Below are positions 29,785 to 44,623 of a DNA stretch of 64,000 bases, piece after piece (the stretch's first letter is position 1; each line of letters starts with the position of its first letter). Origin of the DNA: Thermoanaerobaculia bacterium (GTDB lineage: Bacteria; Acidobacteriota; Thermoanaerobaculia; Multivoradales; Multivoraceae); assembly GCA_963666565.1 (NCBI GenBank), contig OY762911.1, positions 4,576,001 through 4,640,000 of the forward strand. Direction: 5' to 3'. Made by a program: the position numbers and the translations under genes. The notes below the pieces were generated by a model, which saw only the letters and a program-made list of their open reading frames with translations, ran no database searches and was not told where the DNA came from.

Positions 29785-29957
29785 GGCGCGGATGGTAGCG
29801 CCCAAGACCCGTCGCTGGCGCCGTGTTTCGGCCCGTCCCGTCCTCGCCCGGGAGCTTTCGCCGCAACTCGCCGCGCCGTCTTCCAGGGCGCAAACCCCTC
29901 GGGCCAGCCGCCTGTATCCTCCGATCCCTCTTCACCACCTACAGGAACAAACGCAGC

Positions 29958-32900
29958 ATGCCGAACCTCGAACGGGTCCTGATCAGCAACCGCGGCGAGA
30001 TCGCCATCCGCATCGCCAAGGCCGCGCAGGCCCTGGGCATGGAATCGGTCGGGGTCTACTCCGCCGCCGACTCCCTGTCGCTCCACACGCGGCTGACGAC
30101 GGAGGCGATCGAGATCGGCAACGGCGCCCCGGACGATCCCGTCGCCGCCTATCTCGACGCCGCCGGCCTGGTTGCCGCGGCCCGTGCCGGCGGCTGCGAC
30201 TGCGTCCACCCCGGCTACGGCTTCCTGGCCGAGAACGCGGACTTCGCCGAGCGGTGCGCGGCGGCCGGCCTGGTCTTCGTGGGACCGCCGCCGGCCGCCC
30301 TGTCGCTCTTCGGCGACAAGGTGCGAGCCCGCCGACTCGCGGCCTCGCTCGACATCCCGGTCGTTCCCGGCAGCGACGGACCGGTCGCGTCGGCGGACGA
30401 CGCCGTCGAACTCGGCCGCCGGCTCGGCTATCCCGTCATGCTGAAGGCGGCCGCGGGAGGAGGAGGCCGGGGAATCCGCGCCGTGCGGTCGGCCGAAGAG
30501 ATGGCCGAGGCGTTCGAGCGGTGCCGGAGCGAGGCCGAGGCGGCGTTCGGCGACGGCGCGGTGTTCGCGGAGAAGCTGATCGAACGTCCGCGGCACATCG
30601 AGGTCCAGGTCCTGGCCGACGCGGGCGGCAACGTCCTCCACCTGCACGAACGGGACTGCTCCGTCCAGTTGCGCAATCAGAAGGTGATCGAGACGGCGCC
30701 CGCGCCGGGCCTGGACGGCGACCTGCGGCGGCGCCTCCTCGCCGACGCCGTCCGGCTGATGGAGGCGGCTGGCTACGTCAACGCCGGCACGGTGGAGTTC
30801 CTCGTCGTCCCGGAGACCGGCGAACACCTCTTCATCGAGTGCAACGCCCGCATCCAGGTCGAGCACACGGTGACCGAGCAGGTCACCGGGTTCGATCTCG
30901 TGGAGGCGCAGTTCCGGATCGCCGCCGGCGCCGGGCTGGGCGACCTCGGGCTGGGCGACCAGGCGGCGGTGGGCGAGCCGCGGGGCTTCGCGGTGCAGGC
31001 GCGGGTCGTTGCTCGCGGCGCGGGAACGCTGAGCGCCTACAAGGAGCCGAGCGGTCCGGGCGTGCGGGTCGACGGCTGCGGCTACGTGGGCTACTCGCCA
31101 CCGCCGCAGTTCGATCCGCTGCTGGCCAAGGTGACGGCCTCGAGTTCGTCCTCGTTCGGGCCCGACGCCGCGGCCTTCGCGGCCGCGGTGGATCGCACGC
31201 GGAGAGCGGTCTCCGAGTTCCACGTCGGCGGTCTCGCCACGAACCTCGACCAGCTCCAGGCAATTCTCGGCCATCCGGCGGTCCGCGCCGGCGACGCGCG
31301 GACCACGCTGCTGGAAGAGAACCCCGATCTGCTCGCCGCCGGGGCCGGGGCGGGCGGCGGCGCGGGCGGCGCGGCCGCGAACGGCGCGATGACGCTGCTG
31401 CGGCAGCAAGCCACGGTGATGGGGCTGTCGGTCGCGAGCGGCGCGGGCACGCAGCCGGCGGCGCGAACGGCCGCCGCCGAACTCGACGTCGAGCCCGGCC
31501 AGCACGCCGTCGCCTGCCCGATGGCCGGTTCCGTGCTCGAGGTGCGCGTCACGGGCGGAGAACGGGTCGCCGCCGGCGACACGCTGCTCGTCGTCAGCGC
31601 GATGAAGATGGAGTCGGCCGTGGCGTCGCCCTGCGACGGGCGGATCGCGGCCATGCAGCCGCTGCAGCCGGGCGACACGGTGGAGGCCGGCCAGGTGGTC
31701 GCGGCCATCGTGCCGGCCGAGGGCGTGGCGGACGAAACGGCCGCCGAGCCCCGGGAAGACACCTGGGCGCCGATGCTCGACGACGTCGCCACGATGCAGG
31801 CCCTGGCGCACGAGCGCCTCGCGCCGGGCTCCGACGATCCCGGCGTCGTCCGCCAGCGCAGCCGCGGCAAGCTGACCTGCCGCGAGCGGATCGACCTCCT
31901 GCTCGACGACGGCTCCTTCCACGAGATCGGCAGCATCGCCGGCTTCGCCTCCTACGACGAGGACGGCGCGATCACGGCGTTCACGCCGGCCAACCACGTC
32001 GGCGGCTGGGGCCGGATCGAGGGCCGCACCGCGGTCGTCTGCGCCGACGACTTCACGTCGCGCGGCGGTCACGCGGACGGCGCCATCGGCGCGAAGAGCA
32101 GCCACCTCGACCGCCTGGCCGTCGAGATGCGGGCGCCGTCGGTCCGCCTGCTCGACGGCTCGTCCGGCGGCGGCAGCGTCGCCGCGATGGTGCCGCAGCA
32201 GCAGAAGGAGGGCGAGAGCAAGGCGAAGGAGAGCCGCGGCGCGATCAAGGCCGGGCGACCCCGGGTCGCGGGCGGCGGCGGCTCCTTCCTGCCCGGCCAC
32301 CTCGGCAGCACGATGTACGCGGAGCAACTGAGCACGGTTCCGGTCGTCAACGTGCTGCTCGGCAGTGTCGTCGGCATCGGCGCGGCCAAGGCGGTGCTCG
32401 GCCACTTCTCGGTCATGGTGCGCGACATCGCGCAACTGTTCGTCGCCGGGCCGCCCGTGGTGCGCCCCGCGATGGGCTACGACATCACGAAGGAGGACCT
32501 CGGCGGCTGGCACATCCACTGCCGCAACGGCTCGGTGGACAACCTGGCCGAGACCGAGGAGGAGGCGATGGCGCTCGCCCGGCGTTTCCTCTCCTACCTG
32601 CCCTCTTCCGTGTTCGAGCCGCCTCCGGTGGCGGCGCCGGATCCGAGCGACCCGGCCGACCGGCGCGACGAGGAACTGTTCGGGTTGATCCCGCGCAAGC
32701 GCACCGCCACCTTCGACGTTCGCCGCGCGATCCGCCTGATGGCGGACCGGGATTCGTTCTTCGAGATCGGTCCGCTGTGGGGGACCGATCAGGTCACCGG
32801 CTTCGTGCGGTTCGGCGGCCGGCCGATGGGCGTCATCGCCTCCGACAGCCGGCACGCGAACGGCGGCGCGCTCACCGCCGACGGCTGCCGCAAGCTGATC

Positions 32901-33422
32901 CGCCACCTCGACGTGTGCGACCTCTTCCACCTGCCGGTCCTGAACCTGGTCGACAACCCCGGCTTCGCCGTGGGCCTGGAGCACGAGATCACCGGCACGA
33001 TCCGCTGGGGCGGCCAGTGGATGATCGCCTTCGCCCAGGCCACCGTCCCGATCTTCACCGTCATCATGCGCCGCAGCTTCGGCGTCGCCGGCAACAACTA
33101 CGCGACTCCGCGCGCCCAACCCTCCATGCGCGTCGTCTGGCCCGCAGCCGACACCGGCGGCATCCCGCCCGAAGGCGGCATCGAGGCCGCCTACAAGCGC
33201 CAGCTCGCCCAGGCCGCGGACCCGCAGGCCTTCCGCGCCGAACTGATGGCGAGGATCGAAAGCGCCCGCGGCCCCGTCGGCCCCCTCTCCCGGTTCCAGG
33301 TCGAAGAGATGATCGACCCGCGAGACACCCGCGCCCTCATCTGCGAGTGGCTCGACACGGCGTGGAACATCGTCTCGCAGCCAGCGAGATTGAAACCGCG
33401 GCCGGTCCAGTTCCGGCCCTGA
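29958..33422 (+). CDS. Single-chain biotin-dependent acyl-CoA carboxylase (BC-BCCP-CT)
   Basis: NRGEIA, GGGGRG, ERDCSVQ, AMKM (biotin lysine) and a carboxyltransferase domain. Confidence 0.93.
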   Translation: MPNLERVLISNRGEIAIRIAKAAQALGMESVGVYSAADSLSLHTRLTTEAIEIGNGAPDDPVAAYLDAAGLVAAARAGGCDCVHPGYGFLAENADFAERCAAAGLVFVGPPPAALSLFGDKVRARRLAASLDIPVVPGSDGPVASADDAVELGRRLGYPVMLKAAAGGGGRGIRAVRSAEEMAEAFERCRSEAEAAFGDGAVFAEKLIERPRHIEVQVLADAGGNVLHLHERDCSVQLRNQKVIETAPAPGLDGDLRRRLLADAVRLMEAAGYVNAGTVEFLVVPETGEHLFIECNARIQVEHTVTEQVTGFDLVEAQFRIAAGAGLGDLGLGDQAAVGEPRGFAVQARVVARGAGTLSAYKEPSGPGVRVDGCGYVGYSPPPQFDPLLAKVTASSSSSFGPDAAAFAAAVDRTRRAVSEFHVGGLATNLDQLQAILGHPAVRAGDARTTLLEENPDLLAAGAGAGGGAGGAAANGAMTLLRQQATVMGLSVASGAGTQPAARTAAAELDVEPGQHAVACPMAGSVLEVRVTGGERVAAGDTLLVVSAMKMESAVASPCDGRIAAMQPLQPGDTVEAGQVVAAIVPAEGVADETAAEPREDTWAPMLDDVATMQALAHERLAPGSDDPGVVRQRSRGKLTCRERIDLLLDDGSFHEIGSIAGFASYDEDGAITAFTPANHVGGWGRIEGRTAVVCADDFTSRGGHADGAIGAKSSHLDRLAVEMRAPSVRLLDGSSGGGSVAAMVPQQQKEGESKAKESRGAIKAGRPRVAGGGGSFLPGHLGSTMYAEQLSTVPVVNVLLGSVVGIGAAKAVLGHFSVMVRDIAQLFVAGPPVVRPAMGYDITKEDLGGWHIHCRNGSVDNLAETEEEAMALARRFLSYLPSSVFEPPPVAAPDPSDPADRRDEELFGLIPRKRTATFDVRRAIRLMADRDSFFEIGPLWGTDQVTGFVRFGGRPMGVIASDSRHANGGALTADGCRKLIRHLDVCDLFHLPVLNLVDNPGFAVGLEHEITGTIRWGGQWMIAFAQATVPIFTVIMRRSFGVAGNNYATPRAQPSMRVVWPAADTGGIPPEGGIEAAYKRQLAQAADPQAFRAELMARIESARGPVGPLSRFQVEEMIDPRDTRALICEWLDTAWNIVSQPARLKPRPVQFRP

Positions 33423-33428
33423 CGCGCT

Positions 33429-33471
33429 GGGTGCGCGGGTCTTCCGACCCGCTTGCCGCCGGAGGCGGCCA
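33429..33471 (+). repeat. REP-like palindrome, family A
   Basis: GGGTGCGCGGGTCTTCCGACCCGCTTGCCGCCGGAGGCGGCCA. Confidence 0.85.
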
Positions 33472-33540
33472 GGAAACGCGCCGGCCGTCAGGCCGGCACC
33501 GCCCGCTGCGGCGCGAATGGGACGGCAGCGGTCAAACCCG

Positions 33541-33713
33541 CCTGGACCGGACCGAGGGGGAGGGTCCCAGGGGCCGCTCGCCCTCCAGAAGAAGACGAAA
33601 GGTCCGGGCTCGCCGTTGTCGGCTGCGTTCCGCTACGCCATCGTTTCATGGCAGGACATCGGCAGTCACTTGCCTCCGACCCCCTGGAACCCTCCCCCTC
33701 GGCCCGGTGCAGG
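33541..33713 (-). repeat. Long-stem non-coding element (33-bp inverted arms), family B
   Basis: Arms 33541-33573 and 33681-33713 pair 30/33; core GGAACGCAGCCGAC on the minus strand. Confidence 0.7.
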
Positions 33714-33753
33714 CTGGACGACGTCAGCTCCGCAGTGCAAAACGGCAACCACC

Positions 33754-33821
33754 GGGTGCGCGGGTCTTCCGACCCGCCGGGTGCGCGGGTCTTTCTGACC
33801 CGCTGCCGCCGAAGGCGGCCA
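33754..33821 (+). repeat. Two tandem REP-like palindromes, family A
   Basis: GGGTGCGCGGGTCTT(C/TC)YGACCCGC twice. Confidence 0.85.
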
Positions 33822-33975
33822 CGACATCCCCGCTGGCAAACCGGAAGGTCAGTCGCCATCGCGCGTTGATCGTCATGGAGCTTGTCCCCTTCCGCGTTCC
33901 GCTGAGGGCGTGGAGTCCATGCTCAGACGCGGCCGGGTGCAGGTCAACGCCGAACCCTCCAAGTAGACTCCGCCG

Positions 33976-34635
33976 GTGCGCTTTCCCCCACTGCCGGAAC
34001 GCCGCTACAGCATCGTGTACGCGGATCCGCCGTGGGACTACAAGGGCCAACTGCAGCACGCCGGCCCGGGCAGCGGCGACTCCGGCGGCGCGGTGCGGCA
34101 CTACCCCACCGTCACGCTGCGGGAGCTCGAGACCCTCCCGGTGCGGACCATCGCCGCCGACGACAGTCTCCTCTTCCTGTGGGCCACCAATCCGCATTTG
34201 GACCAAGCGATCGACCTCGGCAAGGCATGGGGTTTCGCCTGGGCGACGGTCGCCTTCGTCTGGGACAAGGTGCGAGTCAATCCCGGCTTCTACACGATGA
34301 GCCAGTGCGAACTCTGCCTCGTGTTCAAGCGGGGCCGCATCCCCAGGCCCCGAGGCGCCAGGAATGTTCGGCAACTCGTCACCGAACGGCGCCGCGCACA
34401 CTCACGCAAGCCGGAGGAAGTGCGCCGGCGGATCGACGCCATGTTCCCGGATCTGCCCAAGGTGGAACTGTTCGCCCGGCCAGAGGTCGACCTGTTTGGC
34501 GATGGGACGCAGAACGGCTGGGATGCCTGGGGGTTGGAAGCACGACGGCCAGCGCAACCACCGACGCACGCCAGCGCTAGCCGGCCAAGCCGCTTGCGGA
34601 AGGCCCCGGCGAGACAGGCATCACTTCGCGACTGA
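33976..34635 (+). CDS. MT-A70-family N6-adenine methyltransferase
   Basis: YADPPW, LFLWAT, FVWDK, HSRKPEE and ELFAR motifs. Confidence 0.92.
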   Translation: MRFPPLPERRYSIVYADPPWDYKGQLQHAGPGSGDSGGAVRHYPTVTLRELETLPVRTIAADDSLLFLWATNPHLDQAIDLGKAWGFAWATVAFVWDKVRVNPGFYTMSQCELCLVFKRGRIPRPRGARNVRQLVTERRRAHSRKPEEVRRRIDAMFPDLPKVELFARPEVDLFGDGTQNGWDAWGLEARRPAQPPTHASASRPSRLRKAPARQASLRD

Positions 34636-35629
34636 CCGCGACATCCGAGACGATCTCGACGCTGCTGAACATATGGGCCGCCTGACGGGACATGCGTGCC
34701 ACGGACGCCTCGAAGTACTCCGGCTCCACTTCGACACCGACGCTGTTCCGGCCCCACTTCGCCGCTGCCGACTGCGTCGTCGCGGTGCCCATGAACGGGT
34801 CGAACACGGTGTCGCCCGCGAAACTGAACATGCGGATCAACCGCTCGGCGATCTCCAGGGGGTACGGCGCGGGATGGTGCCGCGTGGATGCGCCTCCGAC
34901 TCCCTCCCAGACCTGGCGAAACCACTTGTGGTGCAGGTCGGCCGGGATCAGACTGAGCACCTTGGCCGAGGGCGTGGGCCGCCGATAGCCGCCCGGCTTC
35001 CGCTGCATGAGGATGAACTCGATGTCGTTCTTGATCACGGCGTTCGGTTCGTAGGGCTTGCCCAGGAAGGCGCCCTTGCCGCCCGTTACCTCGTAGGCCG
35101 CGTTGGCGATCTTGTGCCAGATGATCGGCGCCAGGTTGTCGAAGCCGATGCGCCGGCAGCGTTCCTGGATCGAAGCGTGCAACGGGACGACGGCATGGCG
35201 TCCGTGCCGCCGGCGCGAGAGGCAGACGTCGCCCACCACGCAGACCAGCCTGCCGCCAGGAACCAGCGCGTCGTAGCAGCGCCGCCAGACCAGGTCGAGC
35301 TGGTCCAGAAAGTCCTCGTAGTCCGCGACCGAGCCCAACTGCCCGTCGGAAGCCGGATACTCCTTCAGCGTCCAGTAGGGAGGCGAGGTGACCACAAGAT
35401 GGACCGACTCCGGCGCGAGCGGCGGCACGGCGCGGGAGTCGCCCAGGAACAGCTCGTGGCGCGTCGGCACTTCCGCGACCAGCGATTCGATCCGCGCCGT
35501 GGCGCTCGGATCCCTCGCCAGTTTCGGCAGATCCCGGCGAGGATTCGCGAAGGACCGCCAGCGCTGTGGCACCAGGTCGAGCAGCGGGTCGCCAAGGTCC
35601 CGAGCCGCCTCTGCCGGTGCCGAACTCAT
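34577..35629 (-). CDS. Site-specific DNA methyltransferase (beta class, N4-C/N6-A)
   Basis: VTSPPYW (motif IV) precedes HPAPYP..DPFMGTATT (motif I). Confidence 0.92.
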   Translation of the reverse strand: MSSAPAEAARDLGDPLLDLVPQRWRSFANPRRDLPKLARDPSATARIESLVAEVPTRHELFLGDSRAVPPLAPESVHLVVTSPPYWTLKEYPASDGQLGSVADYEDFLDQLDLVWRRCYDALVPGGRLVCVVGDVCLSRRRHGRHAVVPLHASIQERCRRIGFDNLAPIIWHKIANAAYEVTGGKGAFLGKPYEPNAVIKNDIEFILMQRKPGGYRRPTPSAKVLSLIPADLHHKWFRQVWEGVGGASTRHHPAPYPLEIAERLIRMFSFAGDTVFDPFMGTATTQSAAAKWGRNSVGVEVEPEYFEASVARMSRQAAHMFSSVEIVSDVAVSREVMPVSPGPSASGLAG

Positions 35630-35870
35630 GCCGGCGAGGGTACCACCGCCGCAGTGCCGCGATCGGACCGCCAGACGACTCCGTCCGCAGCCCATTCCGT
35701 TCCGACTCGAACACGGCACGAGCAACCGGCTCGGCCTGACTCCAGTGCCGGTGCGCCGGCCTTCCGGCCGGCATCCGTGTGGCGCACCGCTAGAGCACGC
35801 GCACGAACTCAGTTGTCGTAGACTCCTCGACTTCGCTCACCCAAGATGCGGACAGCCGAGGAGCAGCCCC

Positions 35871-36908
35871 ATGAGTTCCGAAGCAGAGAGTTACCTGGAA
35901 CGCGTAGGGAAGGAAGCCCGGGAAGCCATCGAGCGCGGCGCGGCGCCGACCCCGGAGAAGCTGTCGGTTCGCCGCCTTGTGGCCATGTTCGGCTACAAGA
36001 TGAGAGGAAAGCTGGTGGTAGCCGCGATCCGCAACGCTCTTGAGGAAAACGGACTGCGAACAAGCCCGGACTTCGAGAGCGTCTGGATCGACCGCGAGAT
36101 CTCCATTGAACTCGACCGCGAGAGCGCCAACGGGTCGGCCGGGACCGCAACGATCGAAGACCCCACGGTCCGCATCGACGCGCTCGACGCCGCGCACCGC
36201 GAGCCGACCGTCATCGATCCCGACAGTCCTCTGCGCGCCGCCACCACGCTGATGCTGCTCAACGACTATTCCCAACTGCCCGTCACGAAGAACCGCCGGA
36301 AGATCCGGGGCATGATCACCTGGAAATCCATCGGCTCGCGGCTGTCATCCGGCGTCGAGTGCAGCCTCGTCAGCGACTGCTTGAACCCCGACGTCCAAGA
36401 AGTCCGCTTGGGAACTCCGCTTCTGGACGCGGTTTCAGCCATCGCCCGACACGGCTACACACTGGTCCGGAGCTCCACGGACGAGATCGTCGGCATCGTC
36501 ACGACGAGCGACCTGAGCAGGGAGTTCCATGAACTGGCCAGCCCCTTCCTCCTGATCGGCGAGATCGAAAAGCACTTGCACTCGCTCGTGCACGGACACT
36601 TCAGGGTCGAGGAGATTCAGGCGGCACTGCCGGAGGGACTGACCGCCACCGGCACCGCCGACCTGACGCTCGGCGGCTACTGCCGGCTTCTCCAGAAACC
36701 CGCGAACTGGAACAAGCTCGGCCTCAACTTCAGCCAGAAGCAGTTCGTCGCAAGGCTGGAGGCCGTCCGGGAGATACGGAATGAGGTCATGCACTTCCGC
36801 CCCGATGGCCTGGATCCCGAAAAGCAGCAAGTCCTGCAGGGTCTGGTCGCGTTCTTCCGCCATCTCGCGCGAATGGGCGTCGTGGACACGTCGTCGAACT
36901 CGAACTGA
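35871..36908 (+). CDS. CBS-pair protein with C-terminal HEPN (Swt1-like) domain
   Basis: ATG 35871 with GAGGAG RBS; CBS motifs DYSQLPV..GMITWKSI and IVGIVTTSDL; IGEIEKHL..LTLGGYCRLL..W..RNEVMH (RxxxxH). Confidence 0.8.
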   Translation: MSSEAESYLERVGKEAREAIERGAAPTPEKLSVRRLVAMFGYKMRGKLVVAAIRNALEENGLRTSPDFESVWIDREISIELDRESANGSAGTATIEDPTVRIDALDAAHREPTVIDPDSPLRAATTLMLLNDYSQLPVTKNRRKIRGMITWKSIGSRLSSGVECSLVSDCLNPDVQEVRLGTPLLDAVSAIARHGYTLVRSSTDEIVGIVTTSDLSREFHELASPFLLIGEIEKHLHSLVHGHFRVEEIQAALPEGLTATGTADLTLGGYCRLLQKPANWNKLGLNFSQKQFVARLEAVREIRNEVMHFRPDGLDPEKQQVLQGLVAFFRHLARMGVVDTSSNSN

Positions 36909-36941
36909 CCGCGCGCAGGACGAAAGACGGAGGTTCGGAAG

Positions 36942-39368
36942 ATGCAGGAGCAGTTGTTCCGCACTTGGTTGAGGGACGTCCGAGGACTCAGCAAAGCGGC
37001 CATCCGTGACGCGGTCGCCCGGTGCAAGCGGGTCGAGAAACACGAGGGCGATCTGGATTCCCACTGGAAGGCTGACGGACTCCACGGGCTCATCGATCAG
37101 CTCACCTACTCGCGGGACGACGAGCGAGACGGCAGGCCTCCCAGGATCCCGATCAACGGTGAACACGTCCACAACACGATGGCGTCGCTGAAGTCGGCCG
37201 TTACCAACTACCGGAAGCTCCTCCACGCTCAAGCCGAAGAGAGAGTCGAAGACGTCGCTTCCGACCGGGAGCGATGGAACCGCTATCTCGAAGACGCTCG
37301 CCGCTACGTCGGAAGCGGCCTTCTGGACAGCGAGGAGGTCGACTACAAACTCGTGATCGAACGACAGCTTCAGGAAGCTCGCCGCGCCGTTCTGGAGGGT
37401 AACGATGACTCCCTCGAAGTCGTCGCGAAGGCGATCGGCAACAACCTGACCTCCACCTACGACAAGACCGGCCTGCGCAACTGGTTCACGGAGCAGCCCG
37501 CGGAAGCTCGCGAAGCTCTGCGGGTCATCTGGACTGAGGACGCGAGGCTGTCAACCGCCGATCGGATCCGCGTGTTCACACCCCTGATTCCCGACACCTT
37601 GCCCAGCGGCCGGCAGGCGCCAACCCGCGGCACTGGCACCCGCCTGAGATGGATCGCCCTTCTCCTGATGGCGCTCGACGCACGCCGGTTTCCGCCCTAC
37701 AAGGTCACGGAGTTCTCCGGGACATACGAGCGCCTTGGACATCCGCCGCCTGCGCCCGATGGAGACGAGGCTTCGCACTACGAACACGCACTGGAACTCC
37801 TCGATGAACTGGTCCGACGCGCTCGTGAGTTCGGCCTCGAACGACCGAAGGACCGCCTCGAAGCGCAGTCGGTCCTGTTCGCGGTCGCCGGAGGCAGGGG
37901 AGCCGCGCCGAAGCCCCTGGGCGACCGACCTTGCTGGTTCGTGGGCGCATCCTGGGATTCAGGCGATCAGACGGATCGGTTCGTCCGGGAGGGGATCTGG
38001 GAGAACGGATACGACGACCGTTATCTGGACCGTGTCAAGTCCATAGAACCGGGGGATCGAATCGCAATCAAGTCCTCGTACGTCACGAAACGCGGCCTCC
38101 CGTTCGCCAACAGAGGCGAGAGCATCTCCACCATGGCGATCAAGGCGACCGGCGTCGTGACCGGGAACCTGGGCGACGGTCGCAATCTCCTCGTGACGTG
38201 GACGCCCATGGAACAACCCCGCGAGTGGTACTTCTACACGCACCGGAGAACGCTCTGGAAGGTCACCCGCGACTCGGGAACGATTCCGTGGGCGGCCAGC
38301 GCCTTGATCGACTTCGCGTTCGACGGAGCAGAGCAGGACTACGACCGGTTCCTGCGGCGCTGGTACCCCGCTTGGTACGACGACCCGGAAAGCGACGACG
38401 GGCCTGACGTGCCGGCGGAAGTGGACCGCCAGCCGCTAACGGACAGCGACTTCTCGAAACTCGCCGACCAGTTGCTCTTCGACAGGGCGGATCTCCGCAC
38501 GATCGCCCGCCTGCTCGACGACAAGCTCCAGGTCATCTTCCAGGGTCCGCCCGGCACCGGCAAGACCTACGCCGCCCGCAAACTGGCGGGCTTCCTTGCC
38601 GATTCCGACGAGCGCGTCACCCTGGTCCAGTTCCACCCGTCCTACGCCTACGAAGACTTCGTTCAGGGCTACCGGCCGACCCTCAAGGGGGGCCAGGCGG
38701 GCTTCGCGCTCCGCGACGGGCCGCTGCTGCGAGCGGCCAGGAATGCGCGGAAGGAGCCCGAAGATCCGCACTTCCTCATCATCGACGAGATCAACCGGGG
38801 CAACCTGGCCAAGGTCTTCGGCGAACTGTACTTCCTGCTGGAGTACCGGGACGAGGGCATGACGCTCCAGTACGCCTCGGACGACGAAGCGCAGTTCAGC
38901 CTGCCCGAGAACCTCTACATGATCGGCACCATGAACACCGCCGACCGTTCGATCGCCCTTGTCGATCTGGCGCTCCGCCGGCGCTTCCACTTCGTCGAGT
39001 TCCACCCCGGCAAGCCGCCCATCCAGGGACTGCTGCGCCGTTGGTTGGAACGGAACGCTCCCGAGATGGACTGGATCGCCGACATCGTCGACGAGGCGAA
39101 CCGGCGGCTTGACGACCGGACCGCCGCCATCGGCCCCAGCTACTTCATGCGGAAAGGCCTCGACGAAGCCAAGGCGCGGCTCATCTGGGACCACAACGTT
39201 CTGCCGTACGTTGAGGAGTGCCTGTACGGAGAGCCCGACCGGCTACGCGACTTCGAGCTTGACGTTGCGGGGCGGCGCCTGAAGCGGCGGACCGAGAAAC
39301 ACGAGGCTGACGACGAGGAGATGCAGCGGGGGTCCGGCGAAGACGACGAAGGCGATGCGGACGCCTGA
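36942..39368 (+). CDS. mcrB: McrB-family AAA+ GTPase with extended multidomain N-terminus
   Basis: GPPGTGKT, VQFHPSYAYEDF, IIDEINRGN, MNTADRS and ALRRRF motifs. Confidence 0.93.
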   Translation: MQEQLFRTWLRDVRGLSKAAIRDAVARCKRVEKHEGDLDSHWKADGLHGLIDQLTYSRDDERDGRPPRIPINGEHVHNTMASLKSAVTNYRKLLHAQAEERVEDVASDRERWNRYLEDARRYVGSGLLDSEEVDYKLVIERQLQEARRAVLEGNDDSLEVVAKAIGNNLTSTYDKTGLRNWFTEQPAEAREALRVIWTEDARLSTADRIRVFTPLIPDTLPSGRQAPTRGTGTRLRWIALLLMALDARRFPPYKVTEFSGTYERLGHPPPAPDGDEASHYEHALELLDELVRRAREFGLERPKDRLEAQSVLFAVAGGRGAAPKPLGDRPCWFVGASWDSGDQTDRFVREGIWENGYDDRYLDRVKSIEPGDRIAIKSSYVTKRGLPFANRGESISTMAIKATGVVTGNLGDGRNLLVTWTPMEQPREWYFYTHRRTLWKVTRDSGTIPWAASALIDFAFDGAEQDYDRFLRRWYPAWYDDPESDDGPDVPAEVDRQPLTDSDFSKLADQLLFDRADLRTIARLLDDKLQVIFQGPPGTGKTYAARKLAGFLADSDERVTLVQFHPSYAYEDFVQGYRPTLKGGQAGFALRDGPLLRAARNARKEPEDPHFLIIDEINRGNLAKVFGELYFLLEYRDEGMTLQYASDDEAQFSLPENLYMIGTMNTADRSIALVDLALRRRFHFVEFHPGKPPIQGLLRRWLERNAPEMDWIADIVDEANRRLDDRTAAIGPSYFMRKGLDEAKARLIWDHNVLPYVEECLYGEPDRLRDFELDVAGRRLKRRTEKHEADDEEMQRGSGEDDEGDADA

Positions 39369-39427
39369 ACCTGGAAGGCCCGATGAAGCCCGCGACGATG
39401 ATCCGCCAACGCTGACGCCCTGAACTG

Positions 39428-40666
39428 ATGCGGACTATCGATCTCACGGAGTGGGAACCGAGCGGGCCCCTCGCCCTGTCATCCGGCGAACTGGCGGAAC
39501 TCGTCGGGCGACGCCGCGAACTGGACCTGACGATCGAACCGGCCGGCGGTCCGGCCGGCGAGTACGTTCTCAGGCCGGGATCCAAGGTCGGCGCGCTCGA
39601 CCTTGAACGCCTGTCGGTCGTCATCCAACCCAAGCTCGACCTCCGTCGGGTGCTCTACCTCGCATCGTGGGCGATGGGCAGTCCGGGCACCGTCACCTTC
39701 CGGCCCGAGTCCTTCGACTTCAAGGGCGAGCCGACGCTGGTCGAGGCGCTGGTCCCGGCGCTTGCCCACGCGGCCCGGCGCGCCTTCGCCCGCGGGCTTC
39801 TTCACGGATACCGCACCGAGGAGGAAGCGCTCACTACCATCCGCGGACGCATCCGCGTCGACGACCAGATCAGACGGCGGTACGGCGTCCCCATCCCCGT
39901 CGAGGTCCGCTACGACGACTTCACGGACGACATCCTGCCGAACCGGCTGGTGAAAGCGGCGGTGCATCGACTCGGTCGTCTGCGGCTTCGGTCGCGGCAG
40001 TCACGTCGCGACCTTGGCGCCATCCGCGCCACCCTCGACAACGTGAGCCCGGTCGAGTTCCCGCCGAACACCGTCCCGGAAGTGAAGTTCGACCGCCTGA
40101 ACGAGCACTACCGGGAGGTGGTCACCCTGGCGCGGCTGATCCTCCGCCACACGTCCTTTGAAGCGGCGCGCGGCGCCGTGCGGGCGAACGGCTTCCTGAT
40201 GGACATGAACACGGTGTTCCAGGAGTTCGTGACGCGCGCTCTCAGGGAGAAACTGAAACTCACCGAGAGCGCCTTCCCCTCCGACAAGCGACTTTCCCCG
40301 CTGCACCTCGACGACAATCGACAAGTGCGACTCAAGCCGGATCTCTCCTGGTGGGACGGCCCAACGTGCATCTTCGTCGGCGACGCCAAGTACAAGAGCG
40401 TCGAGCACAAGACCGTACGCAACGCCGACCTCTACCAACTCCTCGCCTACACCACCGCCCTCGACCTGCCCGGAGGCCTTCTGATCTACGCCGAAGGCGA
40501 AGCCGACGACGTTGTGCATCGAGTTCGCCACGCCGGGAAGCGGCTCGAAGTCGCCACGCTGGACCTGTCAGGCAGCATAAGCAGCCTCCGAGCCGAGATC
40601 GGCAAACTGGCGGAACGAGTCCGCGACCTCCGTCGTAGCACCCTTGAACTCCGTCGAGCCGCCTGA
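39428..40666 (+). CDS. mcrC: McrC-family PD-(D/E)xK nuclease subunit
   Basis: MDMNTVFQEFV, LKPDL, DAKYK and DLYQLLAY motifs. Confidence 0.92.
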   Translation: MRTIDLTEWEPSGPLALSSGELAELVGRRRELDLTIEPAGGPAGEYVLRPGSKVGALDLERLSVVIQPKLDLRRVLYLASWAMGSPGTVTFRPESFDFKGEPTLVEALVPALAHAARRAFARGLLHGYRTEEEALTTIRGRIRVDDQIRRRYGVPIPVEVRYDDFTDDILPNRLVKAAVHRLGRLRLRSRQSRRDLGAIRATLDNVSPVEFPPNTVPEVKFDRLNEHYREVVTLARLILRHTSFEAARGAVRANGFLMDMNTVFQEFVTRALREKLKLTESAFPSDKRLSPLHLDDNRQVRLKPDLSWWDGPTCIFVGDAKYKSVEHKTVRNADLYQLLAYTTALDLPGGLLIYAEGEADDVVHRVRHAGKRLEVATLDLSGSISSLRAEIGKLAERVRDLRRSTLELRRAA

Positions 40667-40711
40667 AACCACTGGACCTCGACGGGCGGGCGGGCCGGTT
40701 AGCGATTGGCC

Positions 40712-41029
40712 TCAGGCCAATCTGCTCTCGGCGGAGGCCGCTGAAGCAGGCAGTACTTCGCGGTCGATCGCGGCCCCTTGCCTAGCCTCGACAACGGAGA
40801 CGTCGTACGCAGCCTGGAGGTTCATCCACAGGACCGCGCCCGTGCCCATGTAACGACCAAGGCGAACCGCCGTCTCCGCGGTGACAGCCCGCTTCCCGCG
40901 GAGAATCGCCGTGATCCGATTCGCTGGAACTCGGAGCGCGAGTGCCAGTTGGTTGGCAGTCAGTCCTCGAGCTTCGAGTTCTGCCTTGAGAATCTGGCCC
41001 GGGTGGCTTCTCAGTCTGGGCATCGTCAC
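40712..41029 (-). CDS. higA: HigA/VapI-family antitoxin (orphan)
   Basis: HPGQIL..LALALRVPANRITAILRGKRAVTAETAVRL..WMNLQAAYD. Confidence 0.92.
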   Translation of the reverse strand: MTMPRLRSHPGQILKAELEARGLTANQLALALRVPANRITAILRGKRAVTAETAVRLGRYMGTGAVLWMNLQAAYDVSVVEARQGAAIDREVLPASAASAESRLA

Positions 41030-41082
41030 CCCTTGTCGTAGTCCTCGATCACAACGTGCGGCGCATGGTAGTCGACTGTCTC
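41026..41082 (-). pseudogene. HigB toxin C-terminal remnant
   Basis: ..ETVDYHAPHVVIEDYDKG* immediately upstream of higA resembles the HigB end (V.IVDYH). Confidence 0.5.
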
Positions 41083-41171
41083 ACCCCGTGGACGTCAGCG
41101 AACTCGGCGGACATCCCGTTCCCGGCATGCAGGAGCAGCCGATACGCTGGCGCGCCCGAAGAGGCCCGACC

Positions 41172-41915
41172 GTGCGACGACTCACCGACTACCGCGTCCT
41201 GACATTCGACTGCTACGGCACCCTGATCGACTGGGAGACCGGCATCTGGGACGCGCTGCGGCCGCTGATCATGCGGAACCGCGACGCCGAGGTCACCCGC
41301 GAGGCCGCGCTGTTCGCGTTCGGGCAGTGCGAGAGCCTTCAGGAGCAGGAGACGCCCGATCTGCTCTACTCCGACCTGCTGGCCCGCGTGCATGGACGCA
41401 TCGCCGACCGCCTGGGCATGCGAACGAAGCCGGAACTCGACGAAGCGTTCGGCGCTTCGGTTCCCGACTGGCCGGCGTTCCCGGACACGGCGGACGCCCT
41501 GCGCGTGCTCAAGCGACACTTCCGGCTCGTCATTCTCTCCAACGTTCACAAGGACGGCATCGCGGGCTCGAACCGCAAGCTCGGTGTCGAGTTCGACGCG
41601 ATCTACACGGCTGAGGACATCGGTTCCTACAAGCCGGCCGACCGGAACTTCGAGTATCTGCTCGATCACCTCCAGTCCGACTTCGGACTCGACCGGTCCG
41701 ACATCCTGCACACGGCGCAGAGCCTCCACCACGACCATGTGCCCGCGAACCGATTCGGGCTCGCGAACGCCTGGATCGACCGCCAACGGCTCTCCGAGGG
41801 CGGAAGCTGGGGCGCTACCGAACGGGTCGAGACGATGCCAACGACCGACTTCGTGTTCTTCTCGATGGGCGAGATGGCAGCGGCCGTGACGGCGTGCGCG
41901 AGCGCCAAGGCGTAG
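41172..41915 (+). CDS. HAD-superfamily hydrolase (haloacid dehalogenase-like)
   Basis: FDCYGTLIDWE, ILSN, SYKP and AQSLHHDH motifs. Confidence 0.92.
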   Translation: MRRLTDYRVLTFDCYGTLIDWETGIWDALRPLIMRNRDAEVTREAALFAFGQCESLQEQETPDLLYSDLLARVHGRIADRLGMRTKPELDEAFGASVPDWPAFPDTADALRVLKRHFRLVILSNVHKDGIAGSNRKLGVEFDAIYTAEDIGSYKPADRNFEYLLDHLQSDFGLDRSDILHTAQSLHHDHVPANRFGLANAWIDRQRLSEGGSWGATERVETMPTTDFVFFSMGEMAAAVTACASAKA

Positions 41916-41940: not shown

Positions 41941-43527
41941 TCAGCCGTCCTCCTCCACCGTCAACCGGTACTTCGCAGCGGTCAGGTACCTGGCCTCCTG
42001 GCGCAGGTCGGCCCTGGTCAAGGGCGACTTCTCCAGCCAGGCCGCGGGCAGCACGAGCCTCAGATCGCGCCCGTCGACTTCGAGCTTGACCGCCAGTGGT
42101 TCGTCCCGCCGGCTGCGGTGGAGTACCGCCGCGAGCCGCAGCAGGACGGCGCCGCGCCGAGCCGGCCGCCGCCATCCCGAGGGCAGGCGGTCGAAGATCT
42201 GGCGCGGGAACTTGCGGCGGTGGCTGCGCACGAGGGAAGCCAGCAGCAGGTGCTCCTGCAGGGAGAACCCGTGCATCTCCGCGTTCTCGACGATGTAGGC
42301 GCCGTGCTTGTGAAAGCCCGCGTGGTTGATGTCCAGGCCGACTTCGTGCAACTGGGCGGCCCAGGAGAGCATGAGCCACGGGAGTTGTCCCGTGAGATTC
42401 CAGGCTTCAGCGCACTGGTCGAGCAACTGAAGTGCCGTCTCACGCACTCGTTCCGCCTGTTCCGGCTGCACGTGGTAGCGCCGGGCCATCGACTCGACGG
42501 CCGCGTGCCGGGTGTCTTCGTGGTGCAGCCGGCCGAGCAGGTCGTACAGGGCCCCTTCCCGCAGAGCGCCGCCGGCAACCCGCATGCTCTCGATGCCGAG
42601 CGCCTTGAAGACGGCGAGCAGCACGGCGACGCCGCCGGCGAACACCGGCGCCCGGCCCTCGCTCAGGCCCTTGATGCCGCCGCGTACCGTGCTGCCGCGC
42701 TCGATCAGCGCTTCGCGCAGCCTGAGCAGCGCCTCGAGCGTGATGCCCTGCTCGCACCAGCCGGCCGCCTGCACCACTTCGGCGACCGAGCGAACGGTGC
42801 CCGAGGAACCGACCGCCGCGCTCCAGCCGGCGCCGGCGCGAAACCGGCTTTCCACGGGTTCCAGCTCCTGGAGCGCCGCGATCTCGGCCCGCCGCCAGCG
42901 CTTCTCCTTCACGCGGCCGTTGCGGAAGTGGCGCAGGCTGAAGCTGACGCAGCCCATGTACAGGCTCTCCAGGTCGAGCGGCTTCGAGCCTTCGCCGACG
43001 ATCAGTTCCGTCGAGCCGCCGCCGATGTCGACCACGAGGCGCCGCTCGTCGCCGGCAAGGCTCCGCGACACGCCGAGGTAGATCAGCCGCGCCTCCTCCA
43101 GGCCCGACACGATCTCGACCGGGTGGCCCAGCGCGCGCTGCGCCGCCTCCAGCAGATCGCGAGCGTTGCGGGCGCGGCGCAGCGTGTTCGTGCCCACGAC
43201 GCGGACGGTTCCCTGCGGAAACGAGCGGACGCGCTCGCCGAAGCGGCCGAGGCAGTCGAGAGCGCGGGCCGACGCTTCCGGCGTGAGCCGCTTGCGCTCG
43301 TCGAGCCCCGCGGCCAGCCGCACGAACTCCTTGCGCCGGTCGACGAACACGAGCTGCCCGCCCCGCACTTCGGCCACGACCAGGTGAAAGCTGTTGGAGC
43401 CCAGATCGGCGGCGGCGACCACCTCCGGCTCCGCCGGCGGGAGAGCGGGTGATCGCTGCGAGTCGGCCGCGGCGACGACCTCCGGGTCCGGCGGCGGCCG
43501 GCGCTGCGGTTGCGGCGAGTCCTCCAT
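41941..43527 (-). CDS. ppx: Exopolyphosphatase Ppx/GppA
   Basis: DLGSNSFHL, GLEEARLIY, DIGGGSTE, ALREGAL motifs and a C-terminal HD-like region. Confidence 0.93.
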   Translation of the reverse strand: MEDSPQPQRRPPPDPEVVAAADSQRSPALPPAEPEVVAAADLGSNSFHLVVAEVRGGQLVFVDRRKEFVRLAAGLDERKRLTPEASARALDCLGRFGERVRSFPQGTVRVVGTNTLRRARNARDLLEAAQRALGHPVEIVSGLEEARLIYLGVSRSLAGDERRLVVDIGGGSTELIVGEGSKPLDLESLYMGCVSFSLRHFRNGRVKEKRWRRAEIAALQELEPVESRFRAGAGWSAAVGSSGTVRSVAEVVQAAGWCEQGITLEALLRLREALIERGSTVRGGIKGLSEGRAPVFAGGVAVLLAVFKALGIESMRVAGGALREGALYDLLGRLHHEDTRHAAVESMARRYHVQPEQAERVRETALQLLDQCAEAWNLTGQLPWLMLSWAAQLHEVGLDINHAGFHKHGAYIVENAEMHGFSLQEHLLLASLVRSHRRKFPRQIFDRLPSGWRRPARRGAVLLRLAAVLHRSRRDEPLAVKLEVDGRDLRLVLPAAWLEKSPLTRADLRQEARYLTAAKYRLTVEEDG

Positions 43528-43552
43528 CGACGCGCAAGTATGATCGCTCGCC

Positions 43553-44623
43553 ATGCCGGTCGAACTCCGCTCCGACACGATGACCCGGCCGTCCCCGGCC
43601 ATGCGCGAGGCGATGGCCGCGGCCGAGGTCGGCGACGACGTCTTCCACGAGGATCCGACGGTCAACCGCCTCCAGGAGCGGGTCGCCGACATGCTGGGCC
43701 GCGAGGCGGCGCTGTTCGTCCCTTCCGGCACGCAGGGCAACCTGTCGTCCCTGCTCGGGCACGAACTGCCCCGCGGCAGCGAGGTGCTGCTCGAATCGAA
43801 CGCCCACATCATCAACCACGAGAACAACGGGATCACGGGCATCGGCGGACTCCTGCCGCGCGCGGTGACGGCGGAGGCCGACGGCATCCTGGCGCCGGAA
43901 CAGGTCGAGGCGGCCATCCAGCCCGACCACCCGACGCTGGCCCCGACCCGGCTGCTCTGCCTGGAGAACAGTTGCAACCAGGCCGGCGGAACGGTCTACG
44001 AACCCGAGCGCACGCGGGCGCTCTGCGATCTGGCGCACCGCCGCGGCCTGCGCGTCCACCTCGACGGCGCGCGCCTCTTCAACGCCGCCACCGCGCTCGG
44101 CTGCACGCCGGCCGAAGCCGCGGGTCCCGTCGACTCGCTCTCGTTCTGCTTTTCGAAGGGCCTGGGGGCGCCGGCCGGCTCGATCGTCGCCGGCTCGCGC
44201 GACTTCATCCGCAACGTCCGGCGCTACCGCCAGATGTGCGGCGGCCAGATGCGCCAGGTCGGCGTGCTCGCCGCGGCCGCCGAAGTTGCCCTCGACGAAA
44301 GCCCGCCGCTGCTCGCGCAGGACCACCAGAACGCCCGGCTGCTGGCGGACACGCTGAACGACCTGCCAGGCGTCGCGCTGGTCGCCAAGCAGCGGACGAA
44401 CATCCTCATCTTCTCCGTCGAGGGCACGGGCCGCACCGCCGCGGAGTGCGTCGAGGCGTTGCGGCGCGAAGGCGTGCTGTGCCTGGACGTGAGCCCGGTC
44501 CGCATCCGGCTCGTCACCCACCGCGACGTGAGTCCCGAAGAGACGGCGCAGGCAGCCGAGGCGCTCACCCGGGTGTTCGGCGCCCAGGACTTCGCACGAC
44601 GGCAACGGACCGAAGAGCCCTGA
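43553..44623 (+). CDS. ltaE: Low-specificity L-threonine aldolase
   Basis: LRSDTMT, VGDDV..EDPTV, HLDGARLFNA and FSKGLGAPAGS motifs. Confidence 0.93.
   Translation: MPVELRSDTMTRPSPAMREAMAAAEVGDDVFHEDPTVNRLQERVADMLGREAALFVPSGTQGNLSSLLGHELPRGSEVLLESNAHIINHENNGITGIGGLLPRAVTAEADGILAPEQVEAAIQPDHPTLAPTRLLCLENSCNQAGGTVYEPERTRALCDLAHRRGLRVHLDGARLFNAATALGCTPAEAAGPVDSLSFCFSKGLGAPAGSIVAGSRDFIRNVRRYRQMCGGQMRQVGVLAAAAEVALDESPPLLAQDHQNARLLADTLNDLPGVALVAKQRTNILIFSVEGTGRTAAECVEALRREGVLCLDVSPVRIRLVTHRDVSPEETAQAAEALTRVFGAQDFARRQRTEEP

Follow-up and report, generated by a model that had tools for sequence, protein, structure and literature searches.

A predicted DS-11 family CBS-HEPN anti-phage protein encoded upstream of mcrBC in a variable defence hotspot of an uncultured acidobacterium

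Gene content of the locus

The window, i.e. the whole 64,000-nt stretch of DNA that was analysed, derives from an uncultured member of the Acidobacteriota and contains three consecutive plus-strand genes, encoding a CBS domain protein, an McrB-like subunit and McrC (Table 1). The first ORF gives a 345-aa translation with zero internal stops (stop codon at 36906-36908), and it does not represent a chance reading frame because 386 homologues were found at E<=1e-5 and 532 loci of such homologues were confirmed in species-representative genomes. The layout given in the preliminary description, namely a CBS pair preceded by a small domain and followed by a helical C-terminus that bears the motifs, with co-directional mcrB 33 nt further on and then mcrC, was recovered in full by translation and by Pfam searches (CBS, AAA_5, PF10117).

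Table 1. Features of the locus with their positions in the window
Feature	Position	Strand	Evidence
Fused biotin carboxylase/BCCP/carboxyltransferase, left hotspot flank	29823..33422	+	Pfam
MT-A70-type DNA methyltransferase, island cargo	33976..34635	+	PF05063, E 6.4e-18; PADLOC MTase_II, 1.1e-56
N6_N4 DNA methyltransferase, island cargo	34577..35725	-	PF01555, E 1.6e-33
DS-11 family gene, predicted CBS-pair + HEPN anti-phage protein, 345 aa	35871..36908	+	NF053863.1 match
N-terminal alpha/beta domain, residues 1-86	35871..36128	+	family-wide conservation; AF2 model
CBS pair (Bateman module), residues ~97-211	36159..36503	+	Pfam CBS; structural matches
Y133 codon, inside CBS pair	36267-36269	+	aligned to Y157 of WP_000257686.1
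All-helical HEPN-like C-terminal domain, residues 212-335	36504..36875	+	fold model; structural matches
RNEVMH, the R-N-x3-H HEPN active-site motif (R303, N304, H308)	36777..36794	+	conservation
DS-11/mcrB junction, 33 nt, GGAGG-like ribosome-binding site	36909..36941	+	sequence
mcrB-like AAA+ subunit, 808 aa, ATG start	36942..39368	+	AAA_5 at 531-682, E 2.1e-22
mcrC, 412 aa	39428..40666	+	PF10117, E 2.1e-55, profile 2-318/318
HigA-family HTH protein without adjacent HigB	40712..41029	-	TIGR02607, 77.8 bits, cut-off 47.7
HAD hydrolase, right hotspot flank	41109..41915	+	Pfam
Ppx/GppA, after HAD hydrolase	41941-43977	-	Pfam

The locus is a variable defence hotspot between the carboxylase gene and the HAD/Ppx pair, and its common resident in the genus is McrBC together with the HigA-like gene. 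The left-flank carboxylase is 78-89% identical across all syntenic relatives, and the right flank is kept in all of them, while the cargo diverges faster than the flanks. Among the loci compared, the MT-A70 gene was found in the window only; it overlaps the convergent N6_N4 gene, which is also present at loci L008, L010 and L105. The HigA-family gene accompanies McrBC in most relatives, and no toxin-sized ORF was found beside it. A further candidate, 'orf138' (33453-33869), belongs to no family, contains REP-like repeats and was rejected as a gene.

An AAA_5 McrB followed by a PF10117 McrC, the two criteria for a McrBC type IV system, is encoded at 36942-40666. 'GPPGTGKT' (Walker A) in McrB and 'DAKYK' in McrC, which we take to be the catalytic motifs of these subunits, are both visible. 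The window proteins share with E. coli McrBC the AAA+ core of McrB and the PF10117 McrC but score far under the equivalog cut-offs, with 170.2 bits over residues 510-695 on NF008457 for McrB (cut-off 637) and 107.5 bits on NF007277 for McrC (cut-off 338). In addition, the DNA-binding domain of E. coli McrB is replaced by an N-terminus of about 500 aa, which represents an unnamed family whose homologues bear the precomputed assignment PF28529.1; a search of residues 1-510 revealed no Pfam, PHROGs or PDB sequence match.

The junction upstream of mcrB has a mean column identity of 88% among the window and loci L004, L005, L006 and L010, and mcrB and mcrC are separated by 59 nt. No terminator-like site was found on the plus strand in 33300-41300. 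A sigma-70 promoter scan of the same interval gave zero sites with a model that is uninformative for this phylum, and RNA folding of the 141 nt upstream of the first gene was unremarkable (z -1.62). Judging from this arrangement, the three genes are probably carried on one transcript.

Family assignment and domain architecture

The protein encoded by the first gene matches the NCBIfam equivalog NF053863.1 'DS11_antiphage' with 329.6 bits (E 1.6e-98, cut-off 260), residues 34-328 being aligned to profile positions 1-304 of 305. In a genome-wide run, where it scored 329.9 bits, it was the sole match above the cut-off in its own genome. DS-11 is a one-protein CBS plus HEPN system validated in E. 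coli, where the Y157A substitution and HEPN catalytic mutations are each reported to abolish defence (DefensePredictor; bioRxiv 10.1101/2025.01.08.631726; Science 2026, PMC13092281); the main text of that paper contains no mention of McrB or McrBC. The E. coli protein WP_000257686.1 scores 404.9 bits on NF053863 and has a tyrosine at position 157, within 'DYSQLPV', and on these two grounds it is probably the tested DS-11 protein. It is 35% identical to the window protein over residues 10-336 (E 2e-70). Both have the same order of N-terminal domain, CBS pair and C-terminal HEPN (365 vs 345 aa), and the essential tyrosine (Y157, aligned to Y133) and the HEPN arginine and histidine are conserved. 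They differ in the host, here an uncultured acidobacterium, and in the position of the gene, 33 nt upstream of mcrBC rather than stand-alone. The sequence comparison thus places the window protein in DS-11 at the orthologous level, and a system of this kind was already known. Relative to stand-alone homologues it has no extra domain.

The preliminary description, which knew of no experimental characterisation, needs correcting in this respect, because the family is the one validated in E. coli, and CBS-HEPN fusions were noted computationally as early as 2013 by Anantharaman et al., who proposed nucleotide sensing and regulation of RNA stability (PMC3710099). Their examples, some with HD domains, are other proteins that likewise combine HEPN and CBS, and the passages of that work on CBS-HEPN fusions make no defence claim and draw no link with McrBC (PMC3710099). 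As had been anticipated, domain-level annotation misses the HEPN: the source annotations and Pfam name only a 'CBS domain-containing protein'. A search with PADLOC (2023), one of the checks proposed at the outset, left the protein unmatched, and neither PADLOC nor PHROGs matched it or McrC; these libraries predate DS-11 or hold no type IV models. A tblastn search of a phage collection at 1e-10 gave no match.

The AF2 model of the whole protein has a mean pLDDT of 88.1. Its N-terminal domain consists of confidently predicted elements (helices 3-21, 33-39 and 47-59; strands 29-32, 62-65 and 76-81), and in the homologue alignment R45 and L62 are invariant while R34, R54, R63, P66, D67 and F68 are nearly so. 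A Pfam search of residues 1-86 gave no match. The CBS pair is recognised by Pfam as two stretches (E 2.8e-13) and superposes on experimentally determined CBS pairs, the highest Z being 16.1 (2rc3_A: Z 15.9, rmsd 2.0, 121 aligned). Around Y133, where the sampled rows have Y or F, residues D132, S134 and Q135 are nearly invariant, and L136 and P137 are invariant.

The C-terminal region carries GEIEKHL (E231/E233/L236), LTLGGYCRLLQKPANW (residues 265-280) and RNEVMH (residues 303-308). Not one of the 43 aligned homologues departs from R303, N304 or H308, and the motif is likewise invariant in all 33 C-terminal rows. This domain was folded alone because CBS pairs fill the structure searches made with the whole model; it formed six helices (pLDDT 88.5, pTM 0.81). 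HEPN proteins head its structural matches by VIA, with 2hsb_A at the top (Z 7.1, rmsd 3.2, 98 aligned), followed among others by AbiF, Csm6, the sacsin HEPN and HEPN toxins; no row reached Z>=8, so that all HEPN matches, at Z <= 7.1, fall under the caution line for helical domains. Foldseek returned no match at E<=0.001. In sequence searches, weak matches to HEPN_Swt1 (PF18731) were obtained for 16 of the 43 homologues (best E 1.9e-4; gathering threshold 27.5 bits) and matches to HEPN_RiboL-PSP for five of the 43. The Pfam HEPN models gave no match to the window protein itself, HEPN_Swt1 none at E<=5. Comparison by hhalign with ten verified Swt1 HEPN domains yielded a P of 0.0012 and a probability of only 18.8%, with W280...RN...H correctly aligned, and a PDB sequence search with the homologue-alignment profile returned CBS proteins only, the C-terminus finding no match. 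Taken with the invariant motif and the published mutants that lose defence, the fold evidence is supportive, not decisive, of the predicted domain being HEPN, as had been suggested from the motif.

A homodimer of the protein was predicted with an ipSAE of 0.65, against 0.00 for the best control; of 30 solved homodimers 20 attain this mark, of 23 single chains one. The homodimer runs have at least 68% of contacts in common, with a partner pLDDT of at least 80. The predicted interface comprises the CBS pair and residues 303 and 306-309 from both copies. The CBS pair would thus hold the homodimer together, and dimerisation would bring the two C-terminal HEPN domains side by side, R303 and H308 of both chains forming a composite RNase site. 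Binding of an adenine-containing ligand to the CBS pair, in the vicinity of Y133, may switch this RNase during infection, and the resulting cleavage of RNA would halt the growth of the phage, probably with loss of the cell. Ligand identity, RNA target, trigger and abortive infection are all putative elements of this proposal. A similar principle, in which paired nucleotide-sensor domains govern an RNase site composed of two HEPN domains, is found in Csm6/Csx1 (CARF-HEPN), and three Csm6 structures match the C-terminal model by VIA (Z 6.6, 5.6 and 5.2). However, the sensor encoded in the window is a CBS pair, not CARF, and there is no CRISPR association.

Distribution of DS-11 and its linkage to McrBC

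Both DS-11 and McrC were searched for in 27 genomes of the genus. DS-11 is present in 12, where it adjoins McrBC in five, coexists with McrC located elsewhere in four, and occurs in the absence of McrC in three; seven of the 15 genomes without DS-11 encode McrC. Each of the 11 McrC loci that do not adjoin DS-11 occupies the carboxylase-HAD hotspot as well, with DS-11 absent there and McrC 66-78% identical, and no DS-11 remnants were found in them by tblastn at E 10 or by blastn with a word size of 7. All that these McrBC-only loci had in common with the window in that search was a hairpin-like stretch of 28-36 nt upstream of DS-11. Conversely, DS-11 occurs without intact McrBC at L007 and L009 and without McrBC at L113, and a 78%-identical DS-11 lies at a different locus in a genome without McrC. 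At L011 McrBC is kept, while its own DS-11 has lost the RNxxxH core by an in-frame deletion. The N-terminus of McrB has been swapped or duplicated between relatives with DS-11 unchanged. The order DS-11, McrB, McrC is found in the window and in six of eight near relatives, and in a quick DS-11 tree, which does not include L010 and L011 (matches <270 aa), the association with McrBC has a single, late origin in a terminal subclade. DS-11 thus appears to have been added to the hotspot once, directly upstream of mcrB.

Beyond these relatives, the survey covered up to two genes on either side of DS-11 at 71 remote loci, and none of these 278 ORFs matched PF10117 (McrC); L039 was left out of this neighbour survey and L004 out of the gene-call list, the homologue at each having been missed by the ORF caller. 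Most of the remote loci have housekeeping neighbours, and the gene for E. coli WP_000257686.1 stands alone beside an integrase fragment. Defence or mobile-element domains were counted, by hand classification and among kin that are not independent, in ~57 of 278 proximal vs ~11 of 123 distal ORFs (Fisher OR 2.6, p 0.004). The expected defence neighbourhood of the homologues was therefore found, while the expected linkage to McrC was absent from the remote loci. With this enrichment, the conserved RNEVMH, the HEPN-topped structural matches and the NF053863 equivalog match, that half of the preliminary description which predicted a HEPN domain and a defence gene stands. Five relatives lie on predicted viral contigs, and none of the 174 genomes of the class sample outside the genus has DS-11, i.e. 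its distribution is patchy.

In the same genus, three sister genomes carry a different DS-11 subtype, whose gene precedes a type I hsd operon and is read in the same direction. The gaps to hsdM, of ~330-370 nt, are not operon-tight, and DS-11 adjoins hsdM in only three of the 12 genus genomes having that hsdM orthologue. Elsewhere DS-11 neighbours GmrSD (L057), BREX PglZ/BrxL (L078), an Eco57I-like enzyme (L115) and DndB (L023).

Interpretation and significance

In all probability the window gene encodes a DS-11 member that operates as an autonomous single-protein anti-phage system and is a cargo of the hotspot, neither module needing the other. Family membership, the conserved key residues, the dimer model and the separability from McrBC support this assignment, as does the fold, which is not decisive. 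Comparative genomics likewise points to one-gene action with no obligate partner. The window locus reveals no new mechanism or kind of system. A housekeeping function without any part in defence, with the protein as a CBS-domain regulator whose helical tail has degenerated, might be read from the annotation and from the metabolic neighbours of many remote homologues but is scarcely credible in view of the equivalog match, the invariant RNxxxH and the occurrence on predicted viral contigs, as well as a patchy presence in a variable hotspot with fast-diverging cargo, which is the opposite of a single-copy core gene.

The preliminary description had instead proposed a three-gene defence unit in which altered adenylate pools or inhibition of McrBC would activate the RNase. 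In such an integrated system DS-11 would be coupled to McrBC, physically or in function, in the manner of PrrC and EcoprrI, would be latent beside intact McrBC and would become a suicide RNase once a phage inhibits McrBC. The tight co-directional arrangement with its ribosome-binding site and no intervening terminator-like site, the junction conserved in five genomes and the recurrent gene order all agree with such a unit, and coupling of HEPN proteins to restriction-modification is a published concept (PMC3710099). It is nevertheless very unlikely, because within the genus each of the two modules, DS-11 and McrBC, is found without the other: in 11 genomes the hotspot holds orthologous McrBC and no DS-11, DS-11 persists without intact McrBC at three loci, and McrBC is retained beside a DS-11 deprived of its HEPN core. 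Further evidence against it is that the McrB N-terminus varies while DS-11, which has gained no domain, remains constant, that the association arose once and does not recur at the 71 remote loci, and that the validated family member is reported to act alone (PMC13092281). An intermediate possibility is that DS-11 genes settle preferentially at the 5' end of restriction operons as a co-expressed second line that is not obligately coupled to them, selection acting on co-regulation or synergy and not on a complex. Two independent DS-11 clades heading two restriction operons in one genus, McrBC and type I hsd, suggest that recruitment to such operons may not be random, and the other restriction and defence neighbours agree with this. 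However, among defence genes, which cluster in any case, restriction systems are the most frequent; together with the loose and infrequent hsdM adjacency and the housekeeping neighbours at most remote loci, this makes such an accessory role unlikely, if conceivable.

The autonomous DS-11 system preferred here can be compared with PrrC, an anticodon nuclease that is kept latent in a type Ic restriction-modification locus through binding of EcoprrI. Both are HEPN RNases, predicted in the case of DS-11, encoded in or next to a restriction locus, and the idea of a second-line suicide RNase could apply to either. PrrC has an ABC-ATPase-like N-domain, whereas the window protein consists of an alpha/beta domain, a CBS pair and the predicted HEPN, with no P-loop match. 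Genetic coupling was also not found, since within this one genus the hotspot can hold either DS-11 or McrBC singly. The presence of the predicted RNase thus does not depend on that of the restriction system, nor the reverse, and the dependence that defines PrrC is lacking.

The label 'CBS domain-containing protein' thus obscures membership of a defence family that has been validated, and its presence in this uncultured acidobacterial lineage extends the range of DS-11 to a new phylum. A single hotspot in one genus that holds McrBC alone, DS-11 alone, both, or both with one decayed represents a natural experiment in modularity, and it raises the question of whether DS-11 benefits from co-expression with restriction systems. 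A broader reading, in which restriction operons (McrBC in this lineage, hsdMSR in the sister genomes with another DS-11 clade) have repeatedly acquired CBS-HEPN RNases of the DS-11 type at their head, as a co-transcribed second line firing on restriction failure, is quite improbable. If true, it would mean that the PrrC principle extends to a free-standing module that senses nucleotides.

DS-11 membership and the predicted HEPN domain

The 345-aa protein encoded ahead of mcrB matches the NCBIfam equivalog model NF053863.1 ('DS11_antiphage', 'CBS domain-containing anti-phage protein') over 304 of 305 profile positions with 329.6 bits (cut-off 260), and its gene is the only one in the genome to do so. 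This one-protein phage-defence family was defined in the DefensePredictor study (bioRxiv 10.1101/2025.01.08.631726, January 2025; Science 2026, PMC13092281). According to the passages of that study that deal with DS-11, it was modelled by AlphaFold3 as a dimer with ATP, Y157A and mutations of the HEPN catalytic residues abolish defence, and the CBS domain is concluded to control the HEPN nuclease via an adenine derivative whose identity is still to be found. CBS-HEPN fusions were already listed, and ligand-dependent control of RNA stability proposed, in the corresponding part of Anantharaman et al. 2013 (PMC3710099). The preliminary description was right in its domain reading, while its statement that no experimental characterisation existed is out of date, because DS-11 has been validated in the former study and the fusion was listed in the latter.

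The protein tested as DS-11 is probably E. coli WP_000257686.1 (365 aa; 404.9 bits on NF053863), which is carried by 129 of 5426 complete E. coli genomes and whose gene stands alone, adjoining an integrase fragment. It shares 35% identity with the window protein over residues 10-336 (E 2e-70), and its residue 157, the Tyr of 'DYSQLPV' that aligns to Y133 of the window protein, fits the published Y157. The conservation of RNEVMH anticipated in the preliminary description was found, R303, N304 and H308 being invariant in 43/43 aligned homologues (42-86% identical), as are E231, E233, T266, G268 and W280. Judged by its sequence, the window protein is a DS-11 member showing every testable defining feature, namely the model score, the CBS pair (detected by Pfam), the HEPN motif and the Tyr.

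The AlphaFold2 model of the window protein (43-row alignment, mean pLDDT 88.1) comprises an alpha/beta N-terminal domain (1-86), the CBS pair and a six-helix C-terminal domain, with R303 and H308 at the end of a long helix (289-306). Structure searches with the whole model return CBS pairs only (e.g. 2rc3_A, Z 15.9, rmsd 2.0, 121 aligned). For the C-terminal domain folded alone (33-row alignment, pLDDT 88.5, pTM 0.81), the top match is the AF_0298 HEPN protein (2hsb_A, Z 7.1, rmsd 3.2, 98 aligned), accompanied by AbiF (Z 6.7), three Csm6 entries (6.6, 5.6 and 5.2), the sacsin HEPN (5.7), two HEPN toxins (5.5), LsoA, RnlA and ST0689. Since no structural match reached Z 8 and Foldseek returned none at E<=0.001, the predicted fold is consistent with a HEPN domain but not decisive. 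Pfam HEPN_Swt1 matches 16/43 homologues (best E 1.9e-4) and HEPN_RiboL-PSP 5/43, neither matching the window protein itself; hhalign against ten Pfam-verified Swt1 domains aligned the W...RN...H block correctly (P 0.0012, probability 18.8%), in weak agreement with the fold.

Homodimer prediction with two ATP gave an ipSAE of 0.65, whereas the highest of three controls scored 0.00; that mark is reached by 20/30 solved homodimers and 1/23 single chains, the ATP itself being unscored. The runs have at least 68% of contacts in common, with partner pLDDT of at least 80, and the predicted interface involves the CBS pair and residues 303 and 306-309 from both chains. A composite HEPN site across the predicted homodimer is therefore supported rather than shown, and the pass may partly reflect likeness to solved dimers, because solved structures are rich in CBS and HEPN dimers. 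The window protein would work like the ligand-gated HEPN RNases Csm6/Csx1, whose sensor is CARF, whereas here a CBS pair is found instead.

Organisation of the locus

The ORF contains the motifs GEIEKHL, LTLGGYCRLLQKPANW and RNEVMH, and the gene arrangement initially described is confirmed. The G+C content drops from 0.71-0.74 to 0.64-0.68 over 34-42 kb of the window.

Coordinates of the genes at the DS-11 locus and of the related hsd operons in sister genomes
Feature	Locus	Position	Strand	Remarks
MT-A70 DNA methyltransferase	Window	33976-34635	+	upstream of DS-11
N6_N4 DNA methyltransferase	Window	34577-35725	-	upstream of DS-11
DS-11 gene	Window	35871-36908	+	345 aa, stop-free
DS-11/mcrB junction	Window	after DS-11 stop	+	33 nt with GGAGG-like ribosome site, then mcrB ATG
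mcrB-like	Window	36942-39368	+	808 aa, AAA_5 (Pfam)
mcrC	Window	39428-40666	+	412 aa, PF10117 'McrBC' (Pfam); 59-nt gap from mcrB
HigA-family HTH gene	Window	40712-41029	-	downstream of mcrC
DS-11 subtype and hsd operon	L114	7800-15956		co-directional
DS-11 subtype and hsd operon	L116	6754-15800		co-directional
DS-11 subtype and hsd operon	L117	2613-8878		co-directional

The two methyltransferase genes are convergent, with a 59-nt overlap, and lie directly upstream of the modification-dependent McrBC; among the loci compared, L008, L010 and L105 also have the N6_N4 gene, and the MT-A70 gene is present in the window only. No HigB partner was found beside the HigA-family gene, a homolog of which is found alongside McrBC in the majority of relatives and, in L006, ahead of DS-11; it may therefore be an island regulator rather than an antitoxin. 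The N-terminal ~500 aa of McrB (36942-38441, residues 1-500) have no Pfam, PHROGs or PDB sequence match, although McrB homologues carry precomputed PF28529.1. The part corresponding to residues ~94-332 is doubled in tandem in several relatives (L102, L107, L109, L110; proteins of ~980-1016 aa), and the N-terminal stretch is wholly replaced in L008, which fits the swapping of a DNA-recognition module.

The REP-like palindromic repeat GGTGCGCGGGTCTTCCGACCCGC occurs in the window in 11 copies at <=3 mismatches (0.01 expected), located at 14923, 21755, 33421-33824, 45155, 49809-49905, 52632-52749 and 59716. Because three copies directly follow the stop of the carboxylase gene, the 138-aa ORF 33453-33869 at that place is probably not a gene and was set aside. 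Upstream of DS-11 (~35742-35777), a hairpin-like GC-rich stretch of 28-36 nt (stem GCCGGCC, loop TTCC) resembles this element; it is conserved in six McrBC-only loci (L104, L107-L111), where it lies between the carboxylase gene and mcrB.

Linkage of DS-11 to McrBC

The preliminary description proposed a three-gene defence unit, with the HEPN RNase as a backup to McrBC. Co-directionality and the 33-nt junction, which is 88% conserved over five genomes, favour such a unit, and no terminator-like site was found on the + strand between DS-11 and the mcrBC genes; DS-11 is probably co-transcribed with mcrBC. However, the modules occur apart within the genus and decay independently. When the best 80 of the 532 loci confirmed in species-representative genomes were searched by tblastn with McrB and McrC, the order DS-11, McrB, McrC was confined to the closest clade (L004, L005, L006, L008, L010 and L011; DS-11 67-88% identical), and only one of 72 remote loci (38-52% identical) has an McrBC pair nearby (L053, 6-8 kb away). 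All close relatives share a fused biotin carboxylase/carboxyltransferase gene as the left flank and, as the right flank, a HAD gene with Ppx/GppA, so these loci represent one syntenic hotspot, whose flanks are 78-95% identical and whose cargo is more divergent (DS-11 67-88%, McrB 59-79%, McrC 69-77%). Inside it, L009 holds DS-11 alone, L007 an McrB C-terminal pseudogene fragment with stops (9402-9866) upstream of an intact DS-11, L010 a DS-11 without its first 103 residues (10001-10726), and L011 McrBC behind a DS-11 (1492-2310) whose RNxxxH core is removed by an in-frame deletion.

DS-11 scores over the cut-off in 12/201 sampled genomes of the class, all in the window's genus (12/27 there, 0/174 elsewhere), while McrC orthologues (66-78% identical) occur in 25/41 genus genomes; these counts are not additive with the 532 loci, because the same genomes may appear under both kinds of identifier. 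In the 27 genus genomes searched for both, McrC is adjacent to DS-11 in five of the 12 with DS-11, elsewhere in four and absent from three, and the 15 without DS-11 comprise seven with McrC and eight without. All 11 McrC loci apart from DS-11 contain McrB-McrC, mostly with HigA, in the same hotspot, and neither DS-11 nor a remnant of it was found in them; in one genus genome a DS-11 of 78% identity lies at another locus, and McrC is absent. A quick ML tree was built from 91 DS-11 sequences (L010 and L011 left out); in it the five intact McrBC-adjacent proteins make up one terminal subclade (SH-aLRT 94), nested in an eight-row clade (99) in which the earlier branches have no McrBC. McrBC is the hotspot's common resident, DS-11 was joined to the 5' end of mcrBC once, and neither depends on the other. 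The window protein is not a restriction-coupled nuclease of the PrrC type: the dependence on the neighbouring restriction enzyme that defines PrrC is not seen genetically, and the N-terminal NTPase domain of PrrC is absent. No published description of the DS-11/McrBC linkage was found in literature on CBS domains, HEPN, McrBC and phage defence, so this context seems unreported, yet the evidence indicates hotspot co-residence.

Genomic settings of the wider family

In 71 remote loci (L039 left out), the two genes flanking DS-11 on either side were surveyed with a crude ORF caller; of the resulting 278 ORFs none was McrC and the majority were housekeeping. Defence or mobile-element domains occurred in ~57/278 ORFs, in 28 loci, including Uma2, DndB+HEPN_Swt1, HigB, ParE, PIN, DruA, GmrSD, Cas3/Cse1, PglZ/BrxL, TIR, RT with HepT/MNT, transposases, integrase and relaxase, compared with ~11/123 ORFs at distances above 6 kb in 68 of these loci (odds ratio 2.6, p 0.004). 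This enrichment is a rough indication, because the classification was by hand and the loci are non-independent.

Five DS-11 relatives lie on predicted viral contigs. Paired homologues within 10 kb are present in L023 (4433-5140 and 9986-10984), where two DndB-family genes lie between them, one carrying a fused HEPN_Swt1 domain that Pfam detects, and in L059 (1541-2503 and 10001-10978). Eight Dehalococcoidia loci (L012, L019, L021, L025, L026, L035, L038 and L042) share a recurring housekeeping neighbourhood with class-III aminotransferase and PIG-L deacetylase genes, pointing to another insertion hotspot that is specific to that lineage.

A second DS-11 subtype, with 38-41% identity to the window protein, was found in three sister genomes belonging to the window's genus, where its gene precedes a type I hsdM-hsdS-hsdR operon in the same direction at a distance of ~330-370 nt. 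In the tree this subtype is a separate clade (support 100) within the other main branch, close to the sequences from E. coli and from viral contigs. The hsdS ORF of these operons has a nucleotidyltransferase (MNT-like) N-terminal part. A further DS-11 copy has as neighbours an Eco57I-like enzyme and a TIR protein of the Pycsar type. The hsdM orthologue of the three operons is present in 20/41 genus genomes, including the window's genome at another place; it adjoins DS-11 in 3 of the 12 genomes searched for both and lacks such a neighbour in 9. On two occasions, then, restriction operons of this genus have acquired a DS-11 gene at their head, in both cases as an accessory that can be dispensed with.
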